Source of the DNA: Escherichia phage Mangalyan
Sequence record: OR449013
Length of the DNA stretch: 64,000 nucleotides
Direction: 5' to 3' (one strand)
Within the stretch, counting starts at the first letter, position 1. Every line of letters starts with the position of its first letter. Below, in pieces: positions 45,918-58,115 of the stretch. A model generated the notes under the pieces. That model did no database searches, was not told where the DNA came from, and saw only the letters and a list, made by a program, of their open reading frames with translations. Position numbers and translations under genes: made by a program.

Positions 45918-46190
45918 TTACTTACGGCGGCAGAATTCAAGCGTTTTTAATTGATAATCTTCCTCAGCCTGGAGTACAACCGCCTCGATCATTTCGTTGG
46001 CATTGTTGAAGCCATACCCTTTAGCGAACTCATCCGCACCACCTTCGTGATCATGTTCTGCGTTCATCGCTTCCACGAAATGGAATTCAAGATTATTGAG
46101 ATAAGGGCTTGATGTTCCGTCCTCTTTTTCGATGAGATCCCAAATAGCATTAAAACGTGATTCGACTTCTTGATTAATCCAGCTTGACAT
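45918..46190 (-). CDS. hypothetical acidic protein (90 aa)
   Basis: ATG preceded by AGAAGAGAGGAAA and GC hairpin. Confidence 0.5.
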   Translation of the reverse strand: MSSWINQEVESRFNAIWDLIEKEDGTSSPYLNNLEFHFVEAMNAEHDHEGGADEFAKGYGFNNANEMIEAVVLQAEEDYQLKTLEFCRRK

Positions 46191-46401
46191 AATGTTTTCC
46201 TCTCTTCTGGTTGTTGTGTGGGCACTTTTGCCCCTTCAAGATAAATGTTACCCCACCACCTGGCAGATGTCAACGGTTTTTATAGTTCTTATATGACAGG
46301 CAGGCCCGGTGATTGTCTCCACCCGTCGCCAGGTGCCTGCCGTGAAACAAGTATAACAAAAAACAGGACCATTGCAAGCCCTGTTTTGTAGTTTATAAGG
46401 A

Positions 46402-46593
46402 TTATATTTTTTCGCCTATGTAGTCCGGTCGGTTTTTCTCTGTCATGCGCTTGAGCAATTCTTGCATGTTGCTTATGGCTTGCAGTGTATCCCCTTCCAG
46501 GCTTGAATCGACATAATCAGGATCGTCTATGACCTTTCTATGATTATGATAACGCAGTACCGCCAATACCTTTCTAACTTGTTCGATATTCAT
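46402..46593 (-). CDS. hypothetical protein (63 aa)
   Basis: ORF only. Confidence 0.4.
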   Translation of the reverse strand: MNIEQVRKVLAVLRYHNHRKVIDDPDYVDSSLEGDTLQAISNMQELLKRMTEKNRPDYIGEKI

Positions 46594-46607
46594 TTTTTAT
46601 CGCTCTT

Positions 46608-46741
46608 TAAAACAAGGTGCCAACCGTTTCCAATAGATCACTGACCATCAGGACAATACTGATCAGCACATATCTAACCATAAGGGGAAAGAGCGCCAGC
46701 GATCCCGCCACGATCCCCATGGTAATAATTATCTTTCTCAT
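46608..46741 (-). CDS. hydrophobic mini-protein (44 aa)
   Basis: below cutoff; start overlaps stop of upstream gene; MRKIIITMGIVAGSLALFPLMV. Confidence 0.3.
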
Positions 46742-46743
46742 GG

Positions 46744-47028
46744 TTAACGGTTCACGTAAGTTTTCCCGTTTACGGTTATCGGCAGATCCTCCAGGTCTGG
46801 ATCTTCTTTAAGGTCGCGAGCAAGCTCACCGCACCGGATACCCTCGAATCCGTAGTACTCTGTTGTGCCGTCCTTAAAAGTTTTTGCGGCAAGGCATAAC
46901 CGATAAGTAACACCGATTTGATTGACTGCATGAATATCTGTTAGATTAACCTCTTTTGCCAGCTCTTTGGCCATTGCAGGCGCATTAAGTCCAACAACCA
47001 GGGCAACCACTGCGATCATCTTTTTCAT
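46744..47028 (-). CDS. secreted or periplasmic protein (94 aa)
   Basis: N-terminal signal-peptide-like MKKMIAVVALVVGLNAPAMA. Confidence 0.55.
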   Translation of the reverse strand: MKKMIAVVALVVGLNAPAMAKELAKEVNLTDIHAVNQIGVTYRLCLAAKTFKDGTTEYYGFEGIRCGELARDLKEDPDLEDLPITVNGKTYVNR

Positions 47029-47117
47029 TGTGTCTATCCTCTTTCTGCTGCGTTTAAGGCGGTCACCGCCGCCTGTTTATGCTTTGTTAGTTAATGGGGC
47101 GCACGGTATAGATTAAA

Positions 47118-47342
47118 CTATGCTGTACGCTCAACTATAACAACGGCTTGAGGGATCTCACCTTCCACCACTATCAAGGCTTTTTTCTGCGTAATGGATA
47201 TCTTTACCCGTTGCAGCGTGGCGGTGAAGTCTTTCATTTCGTCACGTGGTGTTTTAGTGCAATGCCAGATCTCAGGTTTGCCGATCTGCAAGCCGCGTAA
47301 AAATTCCGTTTTGCCTGTTTTGTTAGTTATCATTTGATTCAC
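47118..47342 (-). CDS. hypothetical protein (74 aa)
   Basis: ORF in leftward block. Confidence 0.45.
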   Translation of the reverse strand: MNQMITNKTGKTEFLRGLQIGKPEIWHCTKTPRDEMKDFTATLQRVKISITQKKALIVVEGEIPQAVVIVERTA

Positions 47343-47347
47343 CTCAA

Positions 47348-47452
47348 CCGATACCGTGGGAAGATAGGATCATGTTAGCCATAGTTGCAACCAATCCAAC
47401 CAATAATGCCAGGCCAACTACTACAACCGTGAAAATTTTTTCTAACATGATT
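47348..47452 (-). CDS. hydrophobic mini-protein (about 34 aa)
   Basis: below cutoff; MLEKIFTVVVVGLALLVGLVATMANMIL; preceded by GC hairpin and GAGGG. Confidence 0.3.
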
Positions 47453-47525
47453 CTACCCTCAGTAATGGCGGGAAGTATTCCCGCGCTATGTAGTACACTT
47501 TACCAGATTGTTGACTGTTGTCAAA

Positions 47526-47750
47526 CTAATTTTTACAAGGGATCAGTAAACTTCTTGCTACTGCTTCACGTAGTCCTTGACTTTTTATCAGATCTATTGT
47601 TGCAGGATGGCAAGTAAAAGCCTTTGACCATTTTTGATCCCCTGGTTTACGGGCAAAAATGTAAACTTCCCCGTCGATTTCATCCCAACGAGTATTGCTT
47701 GTTAGTTTTTTAAGCGCCATGATGATTTCTCTTTTAGTTGTGAGCGGCAC
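47526..47750 (-). CDS. hypothetical protein (about 64-74 aa)
   Basis: ORF; alternative internal start MALKKL. Confidence 0.4.
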   Translation of the reverse strand: MPLTTKREIIMALKKLTSNTRWDEIDGEVYIFARKPGDQKWSKAFTCHPATIDLIKSQGLREAVARSLLIPCKN

Positions 47751-47808
47751 TATTGCCGCCCTATATGATAAACTATACCAGAATAAAAAACAGTGTCAAG
47801 CTATTTTA

Positions 47809-48048
47809 TCACATTCCAACCATCGCGGCACGGATCGCCGTAGTGCTGTACTTGAAGCCGTCCGGGGTCTTATCTTGTCCGGTTAGCTCCAGAAAAAGCA
47901 TCATATCCCGCGCCGCATCATTACGATTAGCATTAGCGTTAATAAAGCCTTGGGCCAACCGGTACAATGACTCATCGTTATTAATCCAAAGGCTTACATT
48001 CCAATGAGTTTTGTTTTTGTAACCGTTATAACCTTTATTGCTTTTCAT
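47809..48048 (-). CDS. hypothetical protein (79 aa)
   Basis: ATG preceded by AAAGAAGAGG. Confidence 0.5.
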   Translation of the reverse strand: MKSNKGYNGYKNKTHWNVSLWINNDESLYRLAQGFINANANRNDAARDMMLFLELTGQDKTPDGFKYSTTAIRAAMVGM

Positions 48049-48394
48049 GGTGTTTACCTCTTCTTTGTTCCGGGTGGAGGATCATTCTACCACCTTATGT
48101 ATTATGCTTTGTTAGATGGTTGTTTGTTGCCAAACTATTTTAACGATAATCATCATATGCTTTATTTACCTGGCGAATATAACATTCAAAAGCCAGATCA
48201 ATAGATTTATATTCACGGATATACTCACCATAGGAAACCACATACATTTCTATAGCTTCCTCATATGCGAGGAGAATAGAATCTAAGCCTACGATCTCAG
48301 TTTTTGCAATAATAGCCATGATTTTTATCCTCTTTGTGGTTGGTGGGGCTTGTTGCCCCCTTTGATTTATATACTACAGTTTTATATGGTCATG

Positions 48395-48628
48395 TCAACA
48401 CTTTTCAAAAAATTTTTCTGCCGTGATATTCTTCCCGGTAGGGTTCGCTACTTTCAAAATTTTATCATGCACTGGACGCCCAAAAGAATAAGATCCGTAT
48501 ACAGTAAACCAATAATCTCCGTCAGGCTGTACTATTACCGCCGCATATGGTACGCCTTTTTCGTTTTTGCTGACAAAATAGATCACATTACCATTAATAG
48601 CCTCAGCGCGTTTAATTTGTTCCATCAT
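48395..48628 (-). CDS. hypothetical protein (77 aa)
   Basis: ATG preceded by AAAGAGAGG and GC hairpin. Confidence 0.5.
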   Translation of the reverse strand: MMEQIKRAEAINGNVIYFVSKNEKGVPYAAVIVQPDGDYWFTVYGSYSFGRPVHDKILKVANPTGKNITAEKFFEKC

Positions 48629-48695
48629 GATGATTTGCCTCTCTTTATTTTTTTTATGATTTTATGCTGTAGGGGCCTTTTCGGCCCCGCCAGGT

Positions 48696-48980
48696 TTATT
48701 TATTGATAGCGTGCAGCGGGAAAGCTACGCCAGGTTGATAGATAACCTTTACAACCTCATCAGGACAAAAGAAATTGCAGAACTCACCGCAATAGGCCTC
48801 ATCCTCTTTTAATTCTTCATCAACATACTCAAAAAAGTAGTCGATGCTTGGATAATCCTGGCCGGGATTATAGTCGACCATCGTTAATAATAACTCTTGA
48901 TCATTCCGTAAGATATGCATACCCGCTTTTAAGTATTTTGCTTCCATTTCTACTGCATCGCCAGCGGTAACAATAGCCAT
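48696..48980 (-). CDS. hypothetical protein (94 aa)
   Basis: ATG preceded by ATAGGAG and GC hairpin. Confidence 0.5.
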   Translation of the reverse strand: MAIVTAGDAVEMEAKYLKAGMHILRNDQELLLTMVDYNPGQDYPSIDYFFEYVDEELKEDEAYCGEFCNFFCPDEVVKVIYQPGVAFPLHAINK

Positions 48981-49203
48981 GGTTTTAACTCCTATCTATC
49001 CGGTTAATGATTTGGGGCCGCCCCCTGATGCGTCCTATTATCCATATTGTGGGGCTTGATGCAAGTACTTCTTTAAAAATTTTTTAAGCGCCTTGGGGCC
49101 GCTGTAACGCTAAAATAATAAAGACCATGCAACCGCATAGCCTTAATGTGATTATATCGCTGCAGGCCCTGCTAGGGGCCTTATTTTGCATCATTTACCG
49201 GAA

Positions 49204-49512
49204 CTATACAGAGAAAACATCGTTCACAATAGCGATCACAATGCCGCCCACCTTGTCACGGTCAACAATGCACAAATCACCATAGATCATGTGGTAGTCT
49301 GGATGATCTTTCACAGAATAGTCAATAAGCGTTTTCTTGTCGTCCAGCTTCGTAACTTCCATTCTCATAACGATATGAGAATCATCAAAGGCATTATTCC
49401 GAAAAATCATAGCCTGGCCGCCAGGGCACCCGGTGATCTCCACTTCCACACCATCTACGATCTGACCATCAAAGAAATAAAGATTATTAGCCTGGATAAA
49501 CATGCCTATCAC
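49204..49512 (-). CDS. hypothetical protein (102 aa)
   Basis: ATG preceded by AAGGAG. Confidence 0.5.
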   Translation of the reverse strand: MIGMFIQANNLYFFDGQIVDGVEVEITGCPGGQAMIFRNNAFDDSHIVMRMEVTKLDDKKTLIDYSVKDHPDYHMIYGDLCIVDRDKVGGIVIAIVNDVFSV

Positions 49513-49549
49513 TCCTTGTTAACTGCGTGGTATTTTAACAGGGTTTAAA

Positions 49550-49598
49550 TTTACTTTATTGATGGCCTTGGAGTCAAGGCCATCTAAAAATAAATTTT
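49550..49598 (-). promoter_or_regulatory. conserved about 46-bp element (copy 1 of 3): hairpin GATGGCC-N10-GGCCATC with TTGACT in loop, leftward promoter-like
   Basis: near-identical copies at 53291-53337 and 53912-53957; on minus strand reads TTGACT, 18-bp spacer, TAAATT. Confidence 0.5.
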
Positions 49599-49797
49599 AC
49601 AGGCCTACAATCTCTTTAATTCGTTTTACTGCTGCCTCAGCGCCTTGAGGGTAAAAATTATGGTAACCAATCACGCGAGTGATACTAATCGCCGTTTGAT
49701 GATCTTCATAATCACCTTTAAAGATTTCTTGACCGTCAATCAGCACGGCAATTTTTTCTTCTTTTTTGAAGTTAATAACGCGGATATTGTTGCTCAT
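49597..49797 (-). CDS. hypothetical protein (66 aa)
   Basis: ATG preceded by GAAAGGAGAAAC and 5' GC hairpin 49829-49843. Confidence 0.5.
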   Translation of the reverse strand: MSNNIRVINFKKEEKIAVLIDGQEIFKGDYEDHQTAISITRVIGYHNFYPQGAEAAVKRIKEIVGL

Positions 49798-49851
49798 TTT
49801 GTTTCTCCTTTCTGGTTTTTGTGGTGGTGGGGATTAGCTCCCCGTTGATTG

Positions 49852-49881
49852 TTATTATCCACATTCCGGACCGGATTGCAA
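49852..49881 (-). promoter_or_regulatory. leftward sigma70-like promoter followed by 5'-proximal GC hairpin
   Basis: minus-strand TTGCAA (49876-49881), 17-bp spacer, ATAATA (about 49853-49858); hairpin GGGGA-TTAGC-TCCCC at 49829-49843. Confidence 0.45.
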
Positions 49882-49928
49882 CACCCCGGAAGAATTTTTT
49901 TTTTTTTAAAGATAGGCCCCCATGATCG

Positions 49929-50048
49929 GGGGCCGTTCTTAGTTACTTACAGCGATAAAGTACATCCCTACGCCTAGCAATATTTCAAGGGCGATAATCT
50001 CAAGCCATACCATAACGCGGCGCACCTTATCGGTGCGGGGCTTATCCT
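49929..50048 (-). CDS. hydrophobic mini-protein (39 aa)
   Basis: below cutoff; GGGGGAG RBS; MTPKDKPRTDKVRRVMVWLEIIALEILLGVGMYFIAVSN. Confidence 0.35.
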
Positions 50049-50224
50049 TGGGTGTCATCGTCTCCCCCTTCCCTTCTGGTAGTAGTGACGTGGTTTACAA
50101 TGGCCCCCAGGAGTATTATCACCACGCACATTACAAGAAAAATTATCTCTGTCGTTGTTCGATCCATTGTTATAAAATTCCTTAAGATCAGGCCTGAAAA
50201 TAAAGCTTTCATTATTGAATCCAT
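50042..50224 (-). CDS. small membrane protein (up to 60 aa)
   Basis: ORF with hydrophobic core IIFLVMCVVIILLGAIV; start uncertain. Confidence 0.3.
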   Translation of the reverse strand: MDSIMKALFSGLILRNFITMDRTTTEIIFLVMCVVIILLGAIVNHVTTTRREGGDDDTQG

Positions 50225-50277
50225 CCCGCCAGGCGGCTGGCCTCAAATCTTCACTAAATGGATTAATTAACGTGGTA

Positions 50278-50682
50278 TTATTTAAACGGCTGGCCCACAT
50301 ATTTTCTATTCCTCTCAAATAAGCGATCCGCCTCAGTTAAACAAATCTCATGGGCGTGATCTCTGGTTTTAGCTTCATCGAAAACCTGTTGTGCAAGGCT
50401 GCAACGTAGGGAGACTGGAAGATCACTATAATAGGCGTTGACAAACGTTTGAGCGTCGTACAGGTCGGAAAATACTTTACCCTTTCTATTATTCCCCTTG
50501 TCAACAATTGCAAGGATAACCAATACAATAGTTGCAACCACCCCCAGGAAAATAGATATAATAAACCATAAAAAGGCGGATCTTCCCATCTTGCCAGCGA
50601 TCCAGGCGTTAAACAAGGCAACCAATACAGCCAAAATAATAAATTCCATTCTATGTACCTCTTTTACAGTTCTGATTAACAA
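50278..50682 (-). CDS. membrane protein (134 aa, two TM segments)
   Basis: FIILAVLVALFNAWIAG and FLWFIISIFLGVVATIVLVILAIV. Confidence 0.55.
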   Translation of the reverse strand: MLIRTVKEVHRMEFIILAVLVALFNAWIAGKMGRSAFLWFIISIFLGVVATIVLVILAIVDKGNNRKGKVFSDLYDAQTFVNAYYSDLPVSLRCSLAQQVFDEAKTRDHAHEICLTEADRLFERNRKYVGQPFK

Positions 50683-50713
50683 TAAGGCGGCAAATATGCC
50701 GCCTGTTACCTGA

Positions 50714-51094
50714 TTAAAAATTATCGCCGTAAATCTTTCCGCTTTCTACCCATACCACCACGCGAGGCATACTATCCCACACGTCTTGTTTTAGATTGAG
50801 CGCGTGCAATTCTTCGGTGGTGCTCATACCGGGCACGGGCTGATTGTATACTGCAAAACGACCGCCTGCATAATCATAGGCCAGGGTTAAATCACACTGG
50901 ATCATCTTTTTGATCATGGCATTAAGCATGGCGTTAGCCGCATATTGGTCACGTTTTAAAGGCAACTCTTTGATTAGTTTGCGATAGTTTTCGATATGGT
51001 CGCACACTGTTTCACGCGGAAGATCTTTCATATCCTCGCGAAAGGTAACCAGGTTAAACATAACGGTGTCAATAGCCTTGGTAGTGTTTTTCAT
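50714..51094 (-). CDS. hypothetical protein (126 aa)
   Basis: ATG preceded by AAAGAGGATAAAATC, 5' hairpin 51119-51139 and promoter. Confidence 0.55.
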   Translation of the reverse strand: MKNTTKAIDTVMFNLVTFREDMKDLPRETVCDHIENYRKLIKELPLKRDQYAANAMLNAMIKKMIQCDLTLAYDYAGGRFAVYNQPVPGMSTTEELHALNLKQDVWDSMPRVVVWVESGKIYGDNF

Positions 51095-51148
51095 GATTTT
51101 ATCCTCTTTGTTTTGTGTGGGGGCAAACGTCTTGCCCCCTTGAGTTTT

Positions 51149-51176
51149 AATATAGCAGGTTTTTAGGTTATTGCAA
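51149..51176 (-). promoter_or_regulatory. leftward sigma70-like promoter followed by 5'-proximal GC hairpin
   Basis: minus-strand TTGCAA (51171-51176), 16-bp spacer, TATATT (51149-51154); hairpin GGGGGC-N9-GCCCCC at 51119-51139. Confidence 0.5.
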
Positions 51177-51184
51177 CACTTTAT

Positions 51185-51808
51185 TTATGAAAAAGTCATC
51201 TCGCCATATTCATCCACATCAAACCGCCAATCATTGGCCTCGATAAGGCCGATCAGGTTTTCGGTAGTGAATTGTTCAAGATAGGCCCCCTCCAGGTCTA
51301 CGTAAACCTTGCGGGATAGCTCCCGTACCGTCTCGGTGATCAGCTCTTCCAGGTCTTCCACTTTGTTTTCTTGTTTGGCGGTCAGATCTAGCCAGGTGGT
51401 ATCAATGTATCCGCTTACAGTGTTTTCATGGCTGTAATGGCTGTACTTGTCGCGTTCAACACTGGCCGATAACTCGCCATCGTGCATTGTGCCGAACAAG
51501 TGACGAATTGATCGGAACTTGGTCAGGGCCTTGACTTTACGCAAGAATTTTTCTAAGTCTACATTTTCAGCACTAATCGATGCGCCATCGCCTTGACACC
51601 AAAAGCCGGACCAATGTACTTCGGTATCTTCAAGGCCGTACTCTGGAAAAACTTGTTCTTTATAGTATTCAATTACATTTTCTGCAAAAAAGTTATCCCC
51701 GCTGTGTTCTTCTCTTTCGCGTACCATTTCAATGGCTTTTTCTTTTTGTTCGTCGGTCAGCACGTCGAAAGATAAATTGTAACCTGTGGTAATGTTAACG
51801 GTGGTCAT
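51185..51808 (-). CDS. hypothetical protein (207 aa)
   Basis: ATG preceded by AACAGGAGAAAA; contains HWSGFWCQGDGASI block that I cannot assign. Confidence 0.55.
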   Translation of the reverse strand: MTTVNITTGYNLSFDVLTDEQKEKAIEMVREREEHSGDNFFAENVIEYYKEQVFPEYGLEDTEVHWSGFWCQGDGASISAENVDLEKFLRKVKALTKFRSIRHLFGTMHDGELSASVERDKYSHYSHENTVSGYIDTTWLDLTAKQENKVEDLEELITETVRELSRKVYVDLEGAYLEQFTTENLIGLIEANDWRFDVDEYGEMTFS

Positions 51809-51865
51809 GATATTTTCTCCTGTTTTCTTTGTTAGTGGCGGGAAGTTTTCCCGCCTATGTTTTTA

Positions 51866-51893
51866 ATTATACTTATCAAGATTTACTTGTCAA
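51866..51893 (-). promoter_or_regulatory. leftward sigma70-like promoter
   Basis: minus-strand TTGACA (51888-51893), 16-bp spacer, TATAAT (51866-51871). Confidence 0.6.
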
Positions 51894-52143
51894 CACTATT
51901 TTTTAAATTATTGTGGCGCAAAATGTTTAAAATCTCCTCAACGTCATCAACACGGCGGCAATTTTTAAACGCTACCAATTGCCCCAAGATTTTAATTACT
52001 GGGCGGCCTTGCCAGTGACCTTGAAGAAAGCGCGCTTTAACTTTATCGGTGGAACTATCACGCCACCAAATAGCCTTGTTGTTGCAGTAGTAAAAATTAT
52101 TCAGGATAACATCAACCTTATCAAAATTTTTTAATTTACGCAT
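51883..52143 (-). CDS. hypothetical protein (86 aa)
   Basis: ATG preceded by AAAGGAGTAAACGCC. Confidence 0.5.
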   Translation of the reverse strand: MRKLKNFDKVDVILNNFYYCNNKAIWWRDSSTDKVKARFLQGHWQGRPVIKILGQLVAFKNCRRVDDVEEILNILRHNNLKNSVDK

Positions 52144-52175
52144 GGCGTTTACTCCTTTCTCTCTTTGATGTGGTT

Positions 52176-52203
52176 AGTATAGCTAACCTGTTTAAGATGT
52201 CAA
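52176..52203 (-). promoter_or_regulatory. leftward sigma70-like promoter
   Basis: minus-strand TTGACA (52198-52203), 16-bp spacer, TATACT (52176-52181). Confidence 0.55.
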
Positions 52204-52386
52204 GCTTTAAATAAAATCACTGTCAATAATATTTTTAACGCCATAAAACGGTCCTGGGCGATGTTTTCAGGTTAAAGGGGGCGATTTTGCATAGGTGGGG
52301 GCCTTTTTGGCGCTTACAGGGCCAACCAGGGGCGCTATTCGTAGGATAGAAACAAAAAGCCCCGCACAATGGCGGGGCGTTGGTTG

Positions 52387-52584
52387 TTATTTGTCTTTAT
52401 GGCGGTACCGTTCCGCCTGTCGTTCACGTTCCAAAAGTAGGCTGGGCAATTTACGATCATAATGATTGCGCCAGATCTTCCCAAACCTTTTTGGCTTATT
52501 CAGTTTATTGTTACGCTGGCGGCGTTCCGGCAGCTCTTCGGAATCATGAGGGCGCTTTACAATTTTCTCGAAATTAATTTTCAT
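52387..52584 (-). CDS. hypothetical basic protein (65 aa)
   Basis: ORF overlapping upstream stop. Confidence 0.45.
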   Translation of the reverse strand: MKINFEKIVKRPHDSEELPERRQRNNKLNKPKRFGKIWRNHYDRKLPSLLLERERQAERYRHKDK

Positions 52585-52991
52585 ATATTCCCCCCCTTGC
52601 TAACTTCAATATTGGCCTGAATGGCCCGGATACGGCGCTTTATAACTTCCTGATCTGTGTGATCGTATCCCCAAAAGTCCACAATTTTTGCGCCCCCCGC
52701 CTCCAGGCGGTATAGTGTTTCCTGCATTTTGTAAGCCGGGATCGGTCGCGGTGTTACTTGGTCACCTTCTTTATTTTTATACTTTATAATATAATCTTCG
52801 TTATCGTTAAATGTCCAAAATGGATATTCTGCAAGGGCGGTACTTCCTCTTTCCTTTTTATCCTGGATCTTGTTTACAATTAAAGCCGTAGCAATAGCGC
52901 CAATAATAAAACTAGCCCCGCTAATCATGTACTTTCTCCTTTCATTGTATTGATAAACTATCTTTATAGATGGCCCTGCAACCAGGACCAC
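52581..52991 (-). CDS. hypothetical protein with N-terminal TM anchor (136 aa)
   Basis: ISGASFIIGAIATALIV hydrophobic segment. Confidence 0.5.
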   Translation of the reverse strand: MVLVAGPSIKIVYQYNERRKYMISGASFIIGAIATALIVNKIQDKKERGSTALAEYPFWTFNDNEDYIIKYKNKEGDQVTPRPIPAYKMQETLYRLEAGGAKIVDFWGYDHTDQEVIKRRIRAIQANIEVSKGGNI

Positions 52992-53002
52992 CGAAAAAAT
53001 AA

Positions 53003-53248
53003 CTATTTCACAATGCCTACAAAACAGATTCCGCCTTCACCTATATAGGCAATATCGGTAATTTTATAATTTGTCAAGATCCGCGTGTTCAGCTCATTAA
53101 TAAAATCGGTCATCGCGTTGGTGTAGTTGTCTTCCGTATCTAAGGCATAATCCCAGGTGTAAACCTTTTTACGTCCGAAGCCTTTTACCATGATACGGGC
53201 GCTTTTGGTGTTGGTAGGGGCATAATATTTGGTGATTAGTGCTGCCAT
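53003..53248 (-). CDS. hypothetical protein (81 aa)
   Basis: ATG preceded by ATAGGAG. Confidence 0.5.
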   Translation of the reverse strand: MAALITKYYAPTNTKSARIMVKGFGRKKVYTWDYALDTEDNYTNAMTDFINELNTRILTNYKITDIAYIGEGGICFVGIVK

Positions 53249-53290
53249 GGTTTTAACTCCTATGCATTAGTTCAGTGTTAACAGTATAAA

Positions 53291-53337
53291 GTTTACTTTA
53301 TTGATGGCCCTGGTGTCAAGGCCATCTAAAAATAAAT
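53291..53337 (-). promoter_or_regulatory. conserved about 46-bp element (copy 2 of 3)
   Basis: TTTACTTTATTGATGGCCCTGGTGTCAAGGCCATCTAAAAATAAA; minus strand TTGACA, 18-bp spacer, TAAACT. Confidence 0.5.
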
Positions 53338-53679
53338 TTACTCGTTTTCTTCCAGTTCTGCAAGCTCTTCTTTCACTTCTTCCAGCTCTGTCTGCAATTC
53401 TTGGTACTCTTCATCGTCCTCAATATCCAGGCTGTCGATGTAGTCGCTAAATCCGCAGCGGTAAGCGATAGGATCTAACTCCTTGAGGATACGCGACGGA
53501 AGAAAAGAAATGTTTCCGATCATAATTTCGCCATAGATCTCGTCTAGCCATTCATCATAGTTTTCGTCGTACTTGTCCTCGTCGATTTCAAAGTTATCGA
53601 TCTTGTTCTCAAGGTCTGCGATCTGTTTTTTCAGCGCGGCGATCTGAATAGCTTTTTCTGCGGCGGTCATAGTAGTCAT
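53338..53679 (-). CDS. hypothetical acidic coiled-coil protein (113 aa)
   Basis: ATG preceded by AAAGGAGAAAACACC. Confidence 0.5.
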   Translation of the reverse strand: MTTMTAAEKAIQIAALKKQIADLENKIDNFEIDEDKYDENYDEWLDEIYGEIMIGNISFLPSRILKELDPIAYRCGFSDYIDSLDIEDDEEYQELQTELEEVKEELAELEENE

Positions 53680-53729
53680 GGTGTTTTCTCCTTTTTGTGT
53701 TTTGGGAAGTTTTCCCGTTTACGTGTTTA

Positions 53730-53757
53730 AGTATACCGATTTGGGTTAGCTTGTCAA
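53730..53757 (-). promoter_or_regulatory. leftward sigma70-like promoter
   Basis: minus-strand TTGACA (53752-53757), 16-bp spacer, TATACT (53730-53735). Confidence 0.55.
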
Positions 53758-53911
53758 TTAAAAATTTAAGAAAAATTTTGCAAAACTGTTGGCGCTACCC
53801 ATCAACATTTGCGCCAGGATGTACCCAATGATGCAAACGATGATGGTTACCTTTGTGTGCTGGCGTGTAGTGCTCATCTTTAAGCCTCCTTTTCCGCTCA
53901 ACTGTGGTTAG

Positions 53912-53957
53912 TTTACTTTATTGATGGCCCTGGAGTCAAGGCCATCTAAAAATAAAC
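53912..53957 (-). promoter_or_regulatory. conserved about 46-bp element (copy 3 of 3)
   Basis: TTTACTTTATTGATGGCCCTGGAGTCAAGGCCATCTAAAAATAAA. Confidence 0.5.
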
Positions 53958-54353
53958 TCAATAAGTTTTTAGTACTTTCCCGTCCAATCTGTCAAGCTGG
54001 ATCTCGATAGCTGCAGAAAACCTATTGTAAACCACATCGCCCAGGGAGTCCAGCCAATCTATGACGTTATATACCTGCTCTTTATTCTTGCAAGTCCGGA
54101 TCCGTTTCATTACGTAAGACGGATCAATATTAGCGCTCTCGTTGTTGTGGTCCTGCGCCTGGCCTGCTGCGCTAATTATAGATTTTACAACCACCTGAAA
54201 GGGCTTTAAGGTGCCTTTTGCGTTCATCTCACGCGCTTTTGCGGCGCGGTTGTTATATGTTACACAACGGCGGCAAATGTTGACCAAATGCATATCAATA
54301 ATTTTTTCATCGTTTGCCAGTTCGTTCATGATGCGGCGTACGTTCTTATTCAT
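53958..54353 (-). CDS. hypothetical protein (131 aa)
   Basis: ATG preceded by AAAGGAAAAAGATC and GC hairpin. Confidence 0.5.
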   Translation of the reverse strand: MNKNVRRIMNELANDEKIIDMHLVNICRRCVTYNNRAAKAREMNAKGTLKPFQVVVKSIISAAGQAQDHNNESANIDPSYVMKRIRTCKNKEQVYNVIDWLDSLGDVVYNRFSAAIEIQLDRLDGKVLKTY

Positions 54354-54435
54354 GATCTTTTTCCTTTGTGCTGGCGGGAAACATTCCCGCCTTTTGTGTC
54401 TAGTTTACTTAAATTTTGCAGCGTGTCAATGATTT

Positions 54436-54834
54436 TTATTCGTGGGCGCATGTTACAATGTGTTTTTTATAGCCCAGGTGGTCAGCAAGTGCCGACAAAA
54501 ACTCTTCTTCGTAGATCCAGCCGTCGGCAGTGATCCCCATAGCATTTAATGCGCTCTCAAGTGCTGCGTTAGCTTTATCGTAACCGTGACCGCTCGCCTT
54601 GCCGCCAGTATAACCGTACTTATTGTTCTTGTTGTCGTGAATCCAAAACACGCAGTAGTGAGTGTTCCCGCTGGCGGCGGCATAATACCGGATCTCAGCT
54701 ACTTCGTGCAAATTATTGTCATCGTCCAGGCCCACCAGATTATAAGCCTTGTAAAATCCACGATCACGGCGGCAGTTCTTGACATCAGAAAAAGAAAAGT
54801 CCGCATTATCAAAATTAAAGGTAGTGGTTTTCAT
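54436..54834 (-). CDS. hypothetical protein (132 aa)
   Basis: ATG preceded by AAGAGGATAAAATC. Confidence 0.5.
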   Translation of the reverse strand: MKTTTFNFDNADFSFSDVKNCRRDRGFYKAYNLVGLDDDNNLHEVAEIRYYAAASGNTHYCVFWIHDNKNNKYGYTGGKASGHGYDKANAALESALNAMGITADGWIYEEEFLSALADHLGYKKHIVTCAHE

Positions 54835-54898
54835 GATTTTATCCTCTTAGTGTCTTTTGTGCTTTTAGTGTATTTGGTGTCTGACTATATGTCAATAC

Positions 54899-55096
54899 TT
54901 ATTTTTTATTAAACCAGTGGTTGATCTGGCCTTTTGTCAGGGCGCAACGATTAAGCTGTTGCCGGGTATAGCTCTGACCGCGACGGAATTTATAAAGGCC
55001 TTGCCCGTTGTTGATGGTTACGTCCACCTGGCAAACCATTTGATCGGTGACGGCCTGGCGAGTGTTGCGACGTACTTTAATTCCGTAGGCGTTCAT
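54899..55096 (-). CDS. hypothetical basic protein (65 aa)
   Basis: ATG preceded by AGAGAGGATAAAAAATC. Confidence 0.45.
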   Translation of the reverse strand: MNAYGIKVRRNTRQAVTDQMVCQVDVTINNGQGLYKFRRGQSYTRQQLNRCALTKGQINHWFNKK

Positions 55097-55465
55097 GATT
55101 TTTTATCCTCTCTGTTAATTAGTGTGGTGTTGTTCACCTTGCGAGGATAAGAATAACAGAACTATCCGAGCTGTCAACCATTAGTTAGAATTATTTTTTG
55201 GGCAGAATTCTCCAGCCGCCGCCCCTGCCAGGTTAACCATCATTTTTTCGTACTCTTCTTTATGTTCCAACGCTCCCGCCATAGCCTTTTCAACCAGGGC
55301 GATAACTTCAGCGGCATTGATCGCTACATTTTCCAGGGGATTATATTACTTTTCATTTTTGTACCTCTTCTGTAGCTGCTTACTTTATAGCGTGGACCTG
55401 CCAGGCTGGCCCCGCCAGGTTGCAACGGTTAGCGCATCAGGTTAGAATTTTTTTTTTGAAAAGTG

Positions 55466-55494
55466 TTGACAGCGGCCCCGCCAGGTGGCACAAT
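55466..55494 (+). promoter_or_regulatory. candidate rightward promoter driving tandem structured units
   Basis: TTGACA 55466-55471, 17-bp spacer, CACAAT; GC-rich spacer GGCCCCGCCAGGTGG. Confidence 0.4.
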
Positions 55495-55510
55495 ATACCT
55501 ATCGAAAGGA

Positions 55511-55735
55511 CGGCAGGCACCGGTGACGGGGGAGACAACCACCGGGGATGGGCGCTGCATAAAATGAGAACGGTTATCATTATCATTTAAAAATTTATGC
55601 AAAAAGTCCTTGCTTTCTTTGTCCTGTGTGATACTATAATAACAAGCCGGGGCAACAGGGGCCGGGAGACAATCACCGGGGGTGCCCGTTATTCTGCAAA
55701 CGAGAATGATTATCATTCAAAATTCTAAATGAGAA
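55511..55735 (+). ncRNA. two tandem about 85-nt related units (candidate small structured RNAs or regulatory elements)
   Basis: unit A about 55511-55600 and unit B about 55649-55735 share GGGAGACAAYCACCGGGG and GAGAAYGRTTATCATT; second unit preceded by TATAAT 55635-55640; no ORF with RBS. Confidence 0.3.
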
Positions 55736-55899
55736 CTCCTCGCATTTAATAAATTTAATTAGCATGCTAATTACCCTCCGTAACAATTTCCTATAAAACA
55801 GTATCCCATAAAATATTCCCATATAGAAATTTTAAAAATCCATTTCTGAAAACGAAAAATCGATTTCGTCCCCAAAAATTTCAGGTCGAGATCCGGAAC

Positions 55900-56025
55900 G
55901 ATTTCCAGAAAATCCGATTTAGAAAACGAAAAACAGATCGAGTACTGAGAAATTTATCGAGAAAAATTTTCAGAAAATCCAAGCCATGAAATGAAAAGTA
56001 GATCGAGTACTGGAAAAATTGTACC
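55900..56025. repeat. tandem about 65-bp AT-rich direct repeat (two units) within a larger repeat-rich spacer
   Basis: AGATCGAGTACTG at about 55935 and 56000; CAGAAAATCC at about 55908 and 55971; GAAAACGAAAAA at about 55849 and 55922. Confidence 0.7.
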
Positions 56026-56319
56026 GCAACCCACTGATAGTGATGGGTTTTCCGTCATAAATCACTAAGAGTGAGTGGAGAAAGGTATGGTGGAGAGGTG
56101 TGTATGTGTGGGAAATATGGAACGGTGATCTCGAGTATGGTGCAAACGGCTAGATAGATTGGCACAATTTTCCGCGCTTGTGTTGAAAAAATCCATTTTA
56201 GTTTTCGATCCATTTTCTGATTTTCTAAGAATTTTAAAATATCTATGTGTTCAAAATATCAGGAGAAAATACATTTTAGAAATTCCCCTGATTTCTGGCA
56301 ACTTGGCAATTTAAAAATA

Positions 56320-56652
56320 TCAGGTGCCCAGTTTGTTCTTTCCTTTATATAAACGCAAGGGTATAGTTTTTGTAACAGTCCACCTTCCCACACCTTCCCA
56401 GTTCCAGTTGTAGGCATGGTACCCGGTTACGCATGCACTGCTAGAGTGGTCATAGGCATAAGAGAACGCTATACGCACCAAATGGAACCAGTCTTTCCAC
56501 GGTTGTGGTCCGTAAGCTTTTCTCCAACACCGACACAAACTAAATGTCTCAAGAATAGGCAGGATAACAAATCCATACACCGCCACCAGAATAGCCAGCG
56601 CAATGATTGTCAGGAATACATACCCTGCAGTTGAAACGATGATCTCTGTCAT
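56320..56652 (-). CDS. membrane protein (110 aa)
   Basis: N-terminal YVFLTIIALAILVAVYGFVILPIL. Confidence 0.5.
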   Translation of the reverse strand: MTEIIVSTAGYVFLTIIALAILVAVYGFVILPILETFSLCRCWRKAYGPQPWKDWFHLVRIAFSYAYDHSSSACVTGYHAYNWNWEGVGRWTVTKTIPLRLYKGKNKLGT

Positions 56653-56852
56653 TTGTCGTCCCCTTTCTTACGGATATAGATGTGAGAGCCTGCCTGTATA
56701 TAAATTTCTCGACCATCTTCTGCAAAGATATGAAATACACGATCACCTTCATACTCGATACGTGATATCTTCATAATGGTCTTTCCACCTGGGATGCGGA
56801 TCTCGTCCCCCACAGCGATGTTCCATGCAGATTTAAGCTTAAACATCTGCAC
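56649..56852 (-). CDS. hypothetical protein (67 aa)
   Basis: ORF overlapping neighbours by 4 nt. Confidence 0.5.
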   Translation of the reverse strand: MQMFKLKSAWNIAVGDEIRIPGGKTIMKISRIEYEGDRVFHIFAEDGREIYIQAGSHIYIRKKGDDK

Positions 56853-57084
56853 CCTCCTTTGGGAACTTAAACTCTGGCATAGCCATATACGCTACAACAG
56901 GGTTGTGATCAAAGTAGAACTGACCGTTAATTATCCCGGTTTTACTCACATAGTTACCAGATCCTGCAAGAACAACCTCGCAAGCTCCGAAATCTACATT
57001 GCCATCCTCATCAGCCATGGCTACGATATACTTTCCAAGAGGCATGTTTTTAACGCCATCTACAAATGTCCACTCTGTGTTCAT
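56839..57084 (-). CDS. hypothetical protein (81 aa)
   Basis: ORF in packed array. Confidence 0.5.
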   Translation of the reverse strand: MNTEWTFVDGVKNMPLGKYIVAMADEDGNVDFGACEVVLAGSGNYVSKTGIINGQFYFDHNPVVAYMAMPEFKFPKEGADV

Positions 57085-57093
57085 ACTTTACCC

Positions 57094-57426
57094 TTAAGGT
57101 AGCCAGTAAACAATCTCGCCTTTCAGCTTCATGTCGTTTCCAACATAAATTTCCCAGCCATCCATCTTAGCAACTGTAGGCCCAAAGTCATCCGCACCCC
57201 TTACCTCTTTCCAGGTCCCGTAGTCAGGTTGCCAGATATAGAATCCACCCTCTTTATCCCATGCTCCGTACACTACGTTTAACAGGTTTCCCATTGCAAC
57301 AATGGTGGGCCGTGGGAATAATACATCTACAGATGCGCCACAATTTCTGGTATCTTTTAAGTTGCAATCCCAAAAGATGTCTGCCAGTGTGGCGGCGATA
57401 GCTTTACGTCTTTCCAATGTTACCAT
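57094..57426 (-). CDS. hypothetical protein (110 aa)
   Basis: ORF in packed array. Confidence 0.5.
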   Translation of the reverse strand: MVTLERRKAIAATLADIFWDCNLKDTRNCGASVDVLFPRPTIVAMGNLLNVVYGAWDKEGGFYIWQPDYGTWKEVRGADDFGPTVAKMDGWEIYVGNDMKLKGEIVYWLP

Positions 57427-57433
57427 ATCATAC

Positions 57434-57625
57434 TCACTTGTTGTTAATAAGTTCTAAAACTTTCTGTCTTACTTTGTCAAGGTCTGTGGATTCAAAAACT
57501 GTACGGTATCCCCAACTTTGCCCATAGGAGTGACTGCAATCCCCGTAGCACCATTGCTCAATTTGATAGTATTCAAGGAACGGGTGCTGTCTAACTATGA
57601 TACCATCTCGGTTAAAAATTACCAT
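57434..57625 (-). CDS. hypothetical protein (63 aa)
   Basis: ORF in packed array. Confidence 0.45.
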   Translation of the reverse strand: MVIFNRDGIIVRQHPFLEYYQIEQWCYGDCSHSYGQSWGYRTVFESTDLDKVRQKVLELINNK

Positions 57626-57688
57626 AATACATCGCTCTCTGTTAGTTTATGCGTATATTATACACTGCAGTTTTCAGATGTCAACCTC

Positions 57689-57940
57689 TTACAGATTGCT
57701 CCAGTACAATCGGCATTTACATTTTGGGCAATGAGGTTCTTTTATATAATAACCATCAGTCTTTGGAACACTTTTTGGTGCAGTTTTAAGATTGTACCTG
57801 GTAAAACATCGGAAGCAGGTTACCTCTCCCACCTGTTGATCGTTGATCCACTCACCAGAGTAAAGTTCTTTCTTGTTTCTCATAATTCTCTCCCAAATCA
57901 TCTGCAATCTTATACCAAAATCTCCAGCCAGAAAGCACAC
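57689..57940 (-). CDS. hypothetical zinc-ribbon protein (83 aa)
   Basis: CFRCF ... CPKCKC cysteine pairs; start uncertain. Confidence 0.4.
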   Translation of the reverse strand: MCFLAGDFGIRLQMIWERIMRNKKELYSGEWINDQQVGEVTCFRCFTRYNLKTAPKSVPKTDGYYIKEPHCPKCKCRLYWSNL

Positions 57941-58115
57941 GGGAACACTTTGAGGATTGAATCTTTACTTGGCTCGGAAGTTCTTTTTCCGTATGATAGG
58001 TAGAAATACCCTCCTGCAGATTCGAATATAGCTCCTTCGGTTGTATCTACCACAGCAAGAATTAAGATTTTAGTCTCCACAGTGCTCTCCTCTCTTAGTT
58101 GTTGTGGAAACTATA

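Follow-up and report, generated by a model that had tools for sequence, protein, structure and literature searches.

A conserved two-stem hairpin repeated between small genes of Vequintavirus phages is a candidate mRNA processing or stability element

The DNA examined here is a stretch of 64,000 nucleotides (nt) from Escherichia phage Mangalyan (sequence record OR449013), referred to below as the window. It belongs to an rV5-like myovirus of the genus Vequintavirus: a megablast search with positions 49000-54500 returned 123 phage records, all of rV5-like myoviruses of ∼137 kb, at 90-96% identity, some of which carry the wrong label 'Campylobacter phage'. This region contains a run of small genes read leftward, on the minus strand, which by synteny corresponds to the rV5 transcription unit 'genes 10-1-238-164'. 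The same stretch holds many near-consensus promoters of the form TTGACA-16/17-TATAAT and several canonical terminators, all of which point leftward. From the many consensus sigma-70 promoters and the small genes, we assume that the cluster is transcribed early. At four cistron junctions (gene A/39-amino-acid open reading frame [ORF], gene B/gene C, gene C/gene D, and gene E/gene F), the DNA carries a copy of one repeated element that is predicted to fold as a two-stem hairpin in the leftward transcript. The copies and the genes that adjoin them are as follows.

53958-53960, minus strand: stop codon of gene A, in the 5' strand of the lower stem of copy 3.
53909-53959, minus strand: copy 3, two-stem hairpin, -26.5 kcal/mol, z -5.4, covariance model 87.8 bits; the fold has its lower stem at 53959-53949/53919-53909, its upper stem at 53946-53937/53932-53923, and the tetraloop ACUC at 53936-53933.
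53758-53877, minus strand: ORF of 39 amino acids, with a strong promoter at 53757-53730.
53338-53679, minus strand: gene B, 113 amino acids, with its stop codon (53338-53340) at copy 2.
53289-53339, minus strand: copy 2, two-stem hairpin, -23.3 kcal/mol, z -6.4, 85 bits; upper stem 53303-53326, loop ACAC.
53003-53248, minus strand: gene C, 81 amino acids, the cassette between copies 2 and 4; deleted in phage 241Ecol014PP.
52955-53005, minus strand: copy 4, diverged and without TTGAC, 70.7 bits; upper stem GGUGGUCCUG/CAGGGCCAUC at 52969-52992, loop GUUG; sense fold -26.0 kcal/mol, z -6.0, antisense fold -11.9 kcal/mol, z -2.2.
49597-49599, minus strand: stop codon of gene E, at copy 1.
49547-49597, minus strand: copy 1, two-stem hairpin, -25.5 kcal/mol, z -6.0, 82.1 bits; upper stem 49561-49584, loop ACUC.

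An earlier note on this DNA had described three near-identical elements, each directly after the stop codon of one leftward gene. An exact pattern search of the plus strand confirms all three as matches to a 45-nt element at 49550-49594, 53292-53336, and 53912-53956 (0 matches in 100 shuffles), although the ends given earlier were 1-4 nt too long. The placement holds as well. Copies 1-3 each begin 2 nt past the stop codon of a leftward ORF (49597-49599, 53338-53340, and 53958-53960), and the next start codon lies 25-45 nt beyond the end of the element. The note had proposed a search for additional copies, and a repeat search indeed revealed a diverged fourth one at 52955-53005, with 69% identity. 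A covariance model of the family found no others: it recovers four members and no more in the window, and the count is the same in the complete rV5 genome, where all of them lie within 4.4 kb.

Conservation in relatives is also evident. When one element was compared by blastn with 50,697 phage records, 120 records matched, all of them Vequintavirus and nearly all with three places per genome. A pattern scan of IMG/VR recovered only 2 viral contigs, and a metagenome scan gave 19 loci, about half of which were chance matches and were excluded. No annotation is present at these sites in the rV5 paper and its supplement or in the rV5 RefSeq record, and Rfam gave no credible match over 46000-58000, where the best overlapping hit was a chance snoRNA (E 1.9). 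In phage rV5_ev146 (LR699804), there is only one near-identical copy of the element, and the set of genes to either side of the locus is different from that in other Vequintavirus genomes.

Folding of the sense (minus-strand) RNA gives the same architecture for all four copies: an 11-base-pair (bp) A/U lower stem (AAAUUUAUUUU / AAAGUAAAUUU in copy 1), a 2x3-nt internal loop with UA on its 5' side and AAU on its 3' side, a 10-bp G+C-rich upper stem (GAUGGCCUUG / CAGGGCCAUC), and a tetraloop. The predicted energies of the sense strand range from -23.3 to -26.5 kcal/mol (z -5.4 to -6.4), and the antisense folds are weaker, most clearly for copy 4. In every copy, the upstream stop codon is contained within the 5' strand of the lower stem (alignment columns 8-12). 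This architecture supersedes the 7-bp hairpin with a 10-nt loop that had been proposed for the element, given that the upper stem actually has 10 bp (GAUGGCCUUG / CARGGCCAUC) and a 4-nt loop and stands on the 11-bp A/U lower stem. A promoter -35 hexamer had also been placed in the loop. Its AC(N) is found there, but its TTG lies within the upper stem. Because of the longer two-stem fold, the hexamers are largely built into the helices, with the TTG of the '-35' in the upper stem and the '-10' TAAAYT forming the 3' strand of the lower stem.

The structure was examined in an alignment of 49 distinct sense-strand copies from ∼20 Vequintavirus genomes and metagenomic contigs. Standard pairs fill 95.5% of the 1029 pair cells, compared with 36-55% when the partners are slid by 1-3 columns. 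The former value is slightly pessimistic, since two copy-4 sequences with a U run one base shorter misregister in the ungapped alignment and were counted as unpaired. Four pairs of the lower stem change on both sides (for example, A-U to U-A, U-A to C-G, and G-C to A-U). For covariation, the alignment scores 0.170 and shuffled alignments 0.113, and none of 500 shuffles reaches 0.170. The upper stem is 99.6% paired, and the five pairs that vary there do so on one side only, always to a wobble. This pairing is strand specific: 123 cells are G.U pairs in the sense strand only and 10 in the antisense strand only, and overall pairing is 95.5% for the sense strand versus 84.5% for the antisense strand.

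The same preference is seen when the copies are compared with each other. Relative to copies 1-3, copy 4 carries three changes in the upper stem (A to G, C to U, and U to C), all of which keep or improve pairing in the sense strand, and in its lower stem, two A-U pairs have been flipped or shifted through changes to both strands. Both stems are likewise retained in the most divergent relative (L006, 85% identical), whose copy 3 has the loop AUAAC, the hexamer TTGATA, and a spacing of 20 nt to TAAATT. Nucleotide diversity (pi) is 0.027-0.072 in the elements and 0.067-0.136 in the mostly coding flanks, and variable sites are concentrated at loop positions 3-4 and in the outer lower stem. In phage Gotham (MT682716), a 6-nt deletion takes most of the 3' arm of copy 3 (GATGGCCTTGACTCCAATCAATAAAG) and abolishes both the hairpin and the -35/-10 spacing. 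This deletion could be a natural knockout or a sequencing error.

The reading that we favor, with about as much confidence as doubt, is that the elements are intercistronic mRNA hairpins for processing or stability, with an RNase III-type site as the leading mechanism. The choice of mechanism is an argument from resemblance, since the hairpin is similar in shape to early sites of phage T7 (the series R0.3, R0.5, R1, R1.1, and R1.3). For this comparison, the T7 early region was fetched and its intergenic hairpins were folded; we take these hairpins to be RNase III sites on the basis of the coordinates of Dunn and Studier 1983, as the RefSeq record contains no such annotation. In R0.5, the hairpin in the gap between T7 genes 0.4 and 0.5, the lower stem has 8 bp, the internal loop is 4x5, the upper stem has 10 bp, and the terminal loop has 5 nt. 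In R1.1, the hairpin that follows gene 1, a tetraloop closes an upper stem of 10 bp. Both phages have small families of mutually similar ∼50-nt intergenic hairpins in clusters with sigma-70 promoters, and the parts are the same in both families: lower stem, internal loop, upper stem of 10 bp, and loop of 4-5 nt. Minor E. coli promoters and T7 promoters share the intergenic spaces of T7, much as promoter-like hexamers do here. The two families differ in that they lack sequence homology, the internal loop is 2x3 in Mangalyan and 4x5 in T7, the Mangalyan lower stem is pure A/U with proximal-box positions 1 and 3 off optimum, and cleavage of the Mangalyan hairpins is predicted.

Established determinants of RNase III recognition can be placed on this structure. 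In the numbering of a minimal substrate, the middle box consists of U12:G27 and C13:G26, and position 2 of the proximal box is 9:30 (PMC1540722). On this numbering, pairs 8 and 9 of R1.1 (U.G and U-A) constitute the distal box, for which a stringent U.G requirement has been described (PMC1540722). Copies 1-3 share this UA/UG distal box with R1.1, as they have U.G and U-A at the same two positions of the upper stem and at equal distance from the loop and from the internal loop. Among 37 distinct versions of copies 1-3, U31-A39 is present in 37 and U30.G40 in 35; at pair 8 of copy 1, U-A replaces U.G in this window only. RNase III substrates contain about two helical turns broken by an internal loop (PMC1540722), and 11 bp, a 2x3 loop, and 10 bp are found here. 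The preferred proximal box reads G-C, A-U/U-A, A-U, and A-U/U-A from positions 1 to 4 (PMC1540722). Position 2 of the Mangalyan hairpin is A-U, as required, and position 4 is a mismatch, which is acceptable as a non-G-C position, as in natural R1.1. Internal loops confine cleavage to one strand, and the 3' hairpin that is left protects the upstream RNA (PMC1540722).

A mechanism of the following kind can be proposed. The element would act in cis as a hairpin of ∼52 nt that forms, in four copies, in the sense mRNA of a leftward, multi-promoter, and presumed early cluster, where it would govern the fate of read-through transcripts. The likeliest route would be endonucleolytic cleavage of the kind carried out by RNase III. 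The register of R1.1 predicts a 3'-side cut after the AAU of the internal loop, which for copy 3 is near 53920/53919, and this cut would leave a protective 3' hairpin on the upstream message. The RNase III step itself, which is proposed by analogy, is possible but rather doubtful. As an alternative to cutting, the hairpin could serve as a plain barrier against 3' exonucleases.

Several points weigh against an RNA-level role of this type. Positions 1 and 3 of the proximal box are U-A and G-C rather than the preferred G-C and A-U, and copy 4 has C-G at the position of the U.G pair (as does R0.5), so the fit to the RNase III consensus is partial. The aligned sequences are closely related (85-95% identity), many of the pair cells descend from few events, and the number of independent compensatory or wobble events is estimated at only five to eight. 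The near-identity of copies 1-3 arises partly from gene conversion and so overstates selection. Moreover, the family consists of just four members that share 4.4 kb of a 138-kb genome, a distribution suggestive of local duplication rather than of a general signal for processing. Since the rV5 paper describes transcription units but not their timing, the early timing of the cluster is an assumption, and a literature search for transcript ends, RNA-seq, and nuclease data of rV5-like phages found nothing relevant. A function of the sense strand as single-stranded DNA would also be compatible with the pairing pattern, since DNA hairpins tolerate G.T pairs as well.

Promoter-like hexamers overlie the hairpin in copies 1-3. 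The minus strand of these copies reads TTGAC(T/A), an 18-nt spacer, and TAAA(C/T)T, with agreement at 9-10 of 12 consensus positions. Sigma-70 promoters have spacers of 17 +/- 1 nt and a -10 hexamer that resembles TATAAT.

53910-53939, minus strand: copy 3 hexamers, TTGACT (53939-53934), 18 nt, TAAACT (53915-53910); 9/12, promoter-like.
53290-53319, minus strand: copy 2 hexamers, TTGACA, 18 nt, TAAACT; 10/12, PhagePromoter call at the orthologous Gotham site.
49548-49577, minus strand: copy 1 hexamers, TTGACT, 18 nt, TAAATT; 9/12, PhagePromoter call at the orthologous Gotham site.

One explanation for these motifs is that the elements are nothing but sigma-70 promoters for the downstream genes, with a palindrome that is incidental or that tunes promoter strength. 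An A/T-rich stretch lies upstream of the hexamers, TAAACT and TAAATT match four of the six -10 positions (A2 and T6 among them), and the PhagePromoter predictions in the GenBank record of Gotham overlap two of the elements. All four junctions also belong to those intergenic spaces of the region that lack a promoter of the TTGACA-16/17-TATAAT type. The pattern of loop variation points in the same direction. In the 37 distinct versions of copies 1-3, the A of TTGAC is present in 37 and the C in 36, and the next two loop bases occur in four and two states. Invariant AC with free loop positions 3-4 is as a -35 hexamer predicts and is not predicted by loop stability. Similarly, the T of column 30 is retained in copies 1-3 even though it pairs by wobble alone; in copy 4, it is C.

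These signs of promoter function are countered by the behavior of the family as a whole. Copy 4 has CTGGTT in place of the TTGAC hexamer and yet keeps the entire hairpin, and copy 3 of L006 alters both hexamer and spacing while both stems stay. Together with the 6-nt deletion in copy 3 of Gotham, these cases mean that conservation of the sigma-70 hexamer and spacing fails across orthologues and across the family. Conservation of the '-10' is not evidence for a promoter, because the '-10' is the 3' strand of a lower stem that undergoes compensatory changes. The bias of wobble pairs toward one strand is left unexplained by a promoter. By the standard of the phage itself, whose own clear promoters have 16-17-nt spacers and TATAAT or TATACT, an 18-nt spacer with a four-of-six TAAAYT is atypical and poor, and the element sites are not among the 33 promoters of the rV5 authors. 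We therefore regard a purely promoter-based explanation as improbable.

What the family conserves is not the promoter. It is a separate matter whether copies 1-3 fire as promoters in vivo, and we would put this somewhat short of an even chance. In that event, the DNA of copies 1-3 would contain a weak sigma-70 promoter from which transcription of the downstream gene could begin anew. The promoter reading of the earlier note consequently stands as a possibility for copies 1-3, with their TTGAC(T/A), 18 nt, TAAAYT, and A/T-rich upstream stretch, but it does not define the family, whose fourth copy lacks TTGAC. The suggestion of a dedicated regulatory element was sound, and a promoter with its -35 hexamer in a hairpin loop is at most a part of it.

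Comparison of relatives reveals a second property of the elements, which concerns the DNA between the copies. The cassette most often involved lies between copies 3 and 2.

53337-53956, minus strand: cassette between copies 3 and 2, comprising the 39-amino-acid ORF, its strong promoter, and gene B; deleted in relatives.

In phages phiWec189 and ECP32 and one IMG/VR contig (L004), the ∼620 bp that separate copies 3 and 2 are missing, together with the 39-amino-acid ORF and gene B. Each of these three genomes has a single hybrid element with the upstream flank of copy 3 and the downstream flank of copy 2. In 241Ecol014PP, gene C is missing and a hybrid of copy 2 (upstream) and copy 4 (downstream) is present, with the crossover in GGCCAUC-AUAAAG. 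In phiWec193, a rare T-to-C change is common to copies 2 and 3, which from the sequences indicates probable gene conversion. Because of the hybrid-junction deletions and the shared rare change, we conclude that the copies are active recombination substrates and serve as junctions for small gene cassettes. Recombination between the near-identical direct repeats would delete, and probably insert, gene cassettes and would also homogenize the copies. An extra ∼365 bp with a 351-nt ORF is found ∼370 nt downstream of copy 1 in the relatives L001, L024, and L027-L030; it is absent from Mangalyan (49204-49191 region), and its junction is not at the element.

These observations raise the possibility that the elements are recombination linkers only, left over from the insertion of cassettes by homologous recombination and kept alike by gene conversion, with a hairpin that itself does nothing at the RNA level. 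Precise deletions of two kinds, both with hybrid junctions, a rare variant shared by two copies of one genome, and the clustering of just four copies within 4.4 kb all speak for such linkers, and there is a precedent in T4-type phages (PMC2839356, PMC4122927). This explanation does not account for the compensatory changes in copy 4, which is too diverged for full-length conversion. It also leaves unexplained the strand bias of the wobble pairs and the persistence of both stems in a genome of 85% identity whose loops have changed. We judge it to have a low probability, on a level with that of the explanation by promoters alone.

The inverted repeat could instead be a DNA operator: a dimeric protein of the phage or the host would bind the 24-bp palindrome GATGGCCYTG-N4-CARGGCCATC and thereby silence the promoters that overlap it. 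In its favor is the strict conservation of an inverted repeat over a -35-like hexamer at three sites. As a DNA palindrome, however, the common form is imperfect (C.A at pair 8 on the plus strand), and copy 4 changes three arm positions asymmetrically, in a manner that preserves RNA pairing over half-site sequence. The lower stem covaries, which is not required of an operator, and neither a candidate binding protein nor a DNA-binding family was found among the neighboring genes tested with Pfam and PHROGs. An operator is thus very improbable.

A transcription terminator or attenuator that ends each upstream gene can be set aside almost entirely: although a stable G+C-rich hairpin lies immediately past the stop codon, neither strand has a U tract (in the sense direction, AAUAAAGUAAA comes after the stem, and in the antisense direction, UAAAAAUAAA), on both strands a U-rich run precedes the stem and an A-rich run comes after it, and a terminator scan misses all four copies yet finds canonical terminators nearby, such as 52378-52359 and 49934-49915.

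Other candidates were considered and rejected. N4-type hairpin promoters have a 5-7-bp stem and a 3-nt loop on the template strand and go together with a giant virion RNA polymerase gene. The elements have a 10-bp stem and a 4-nt loop, their hairpin is stronger on the non-template (sense) strand, and the rV5 annotation contains no such polymerase. A single-strand promoter was rejected as well. CRISPR-like or ToxI-like repeats do not fit, as the copies are dispersed rather than tandem, and a Dcm/EcoRII site does not fit, as most copies contain CCWGG but copy 1 of the window has lost it.

The favored reading, that of an intercistronic mRNA hairpin for processing or stability, can be compared with two further systems. 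REP elements are RNA hairpins that shield upstream mRNA from 3' exonucleases and are also recombination substrates. Like the Mangalyan elements, those of E. coli are repeated imperfect palindromes located just past stop codons within operons. They differ in being chromosomal, in numbering hundreds of copies, in their unrelated sequence, and in having no embedded promoter hexamers.

The second system is that of the promoter-early stem-loop (PeSL) cassettes of T4-type phages (Arbiol et al. 2010, PMC2839356; Comeau et al. 2014, PMC4122927). In both cases, repeated composite motifs with a sigma-70-like promoter (a putative one in Mangalyan), an A/T-rich stretch, and a stem-loop lie between small genes of unknown function. 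Recombination between copies removes the intervening ORFs in close relatives in both cases, and indel junctions fall within the motif. Excision products in the form of mini-circles are a further mark of PeSL cassettes. The PeSL stem-loop stands beside the promoter and functions as a terminator, the PeSL promoter is strong and near consensus, and there are many copies per genome. In contrast, the Mangalyan hairpin overlaps the hexamers, includes a second, covarying stem, matches a promoter only weakly, and is present in four copies. It also has no U tract, and a terminator function like that of PeSL is not predicted for it.

The predicted 3'-side cut lies ∼16 nt upstream of the putative promoter start. 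In a more ambitious scheme, each element would be a self-contained cassette junction: a single 52-bp sequence would provide a hairpin for RNase III-type processing of read-through mRNA, a sigma-70 promoter for a new round of transcription ∼16 nt past the cut, and a homology patch for cassette excision or insertion. It would then be an independently evolved analogue of PeSL whose promoter and RNA signal occupy the same bases. We consider this full combination unlikely, although less so than any of the rival explanations above.

Among ten neighboring genes searched with Pfam and PHROGs, all but one gave only 'unknown function'. The remaining one, a 65-amino-acid ORF at 52387-52584 on the minus strand, matches the phage T7 gene 1.1 protein family (Pfam PF08200, E 1.8e-11). 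The 81-amino-acid gene next to the elements has homologues only in unrelated phages and none in other Vequintavirinae genera, and comparison by synteny beyond the genus is for this reason impossible.

The window contains other repeats. A second hairpin family, GGCGGGAAnnnTTCCCGCC, occurs at 47463-47484, 51833-51854, and 54369-54390, in each case 10-15 nt downstream of a near-consensus leftward sigma-70 promoter. Transcripts from these promoters would thus carry the hairpin at their 5' ends; read on the plus strand, the hairpins resemble terminators. At 1423-1508, there are four tandem units of 21-22 nt (GTGTCCGTATCACGGACAGTTA), each an inverted repeat, and no other 60-nt fold in the window is as stable as theirs (-34 kcal/mol). 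By rV5 synteny, they adjoin a gene annotated 'replication initiation protein' (rv5_gp075), and they may be an iteron-like origin or operator. Finally, a repeat search located three A/T-rich direct repeats of ∼65 nt each at 55817-56020, in a stretch without long ORFs.

The elements described here are probably a variant of T7-type processing hairpins and of PeSL-type junctions that is confined to one phage genus. The overlap of promoter-like hexamers with structured RNA is a warning for promoter predictors, as the '-10' is conserved at least partly through base pairing. The deletion junctions show a route by which small genes of unknown function are gained and lost, and they extend the PeSL idea beyond T4-type phages. 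Very little work has addressed regulation in phages of the rV5 type, although they are in wide use for E. coli O157 research and phage therapy. The promoters and terminators listed in the rV5 paper are consensus ones only, and the present elements go unmentioned there. An mRNA hairpin that is conserved, that covaries, and whose geometry resembles that of RNase III sites provides a concrete and cheap hypothesis on post-transcriptional control in the genus.

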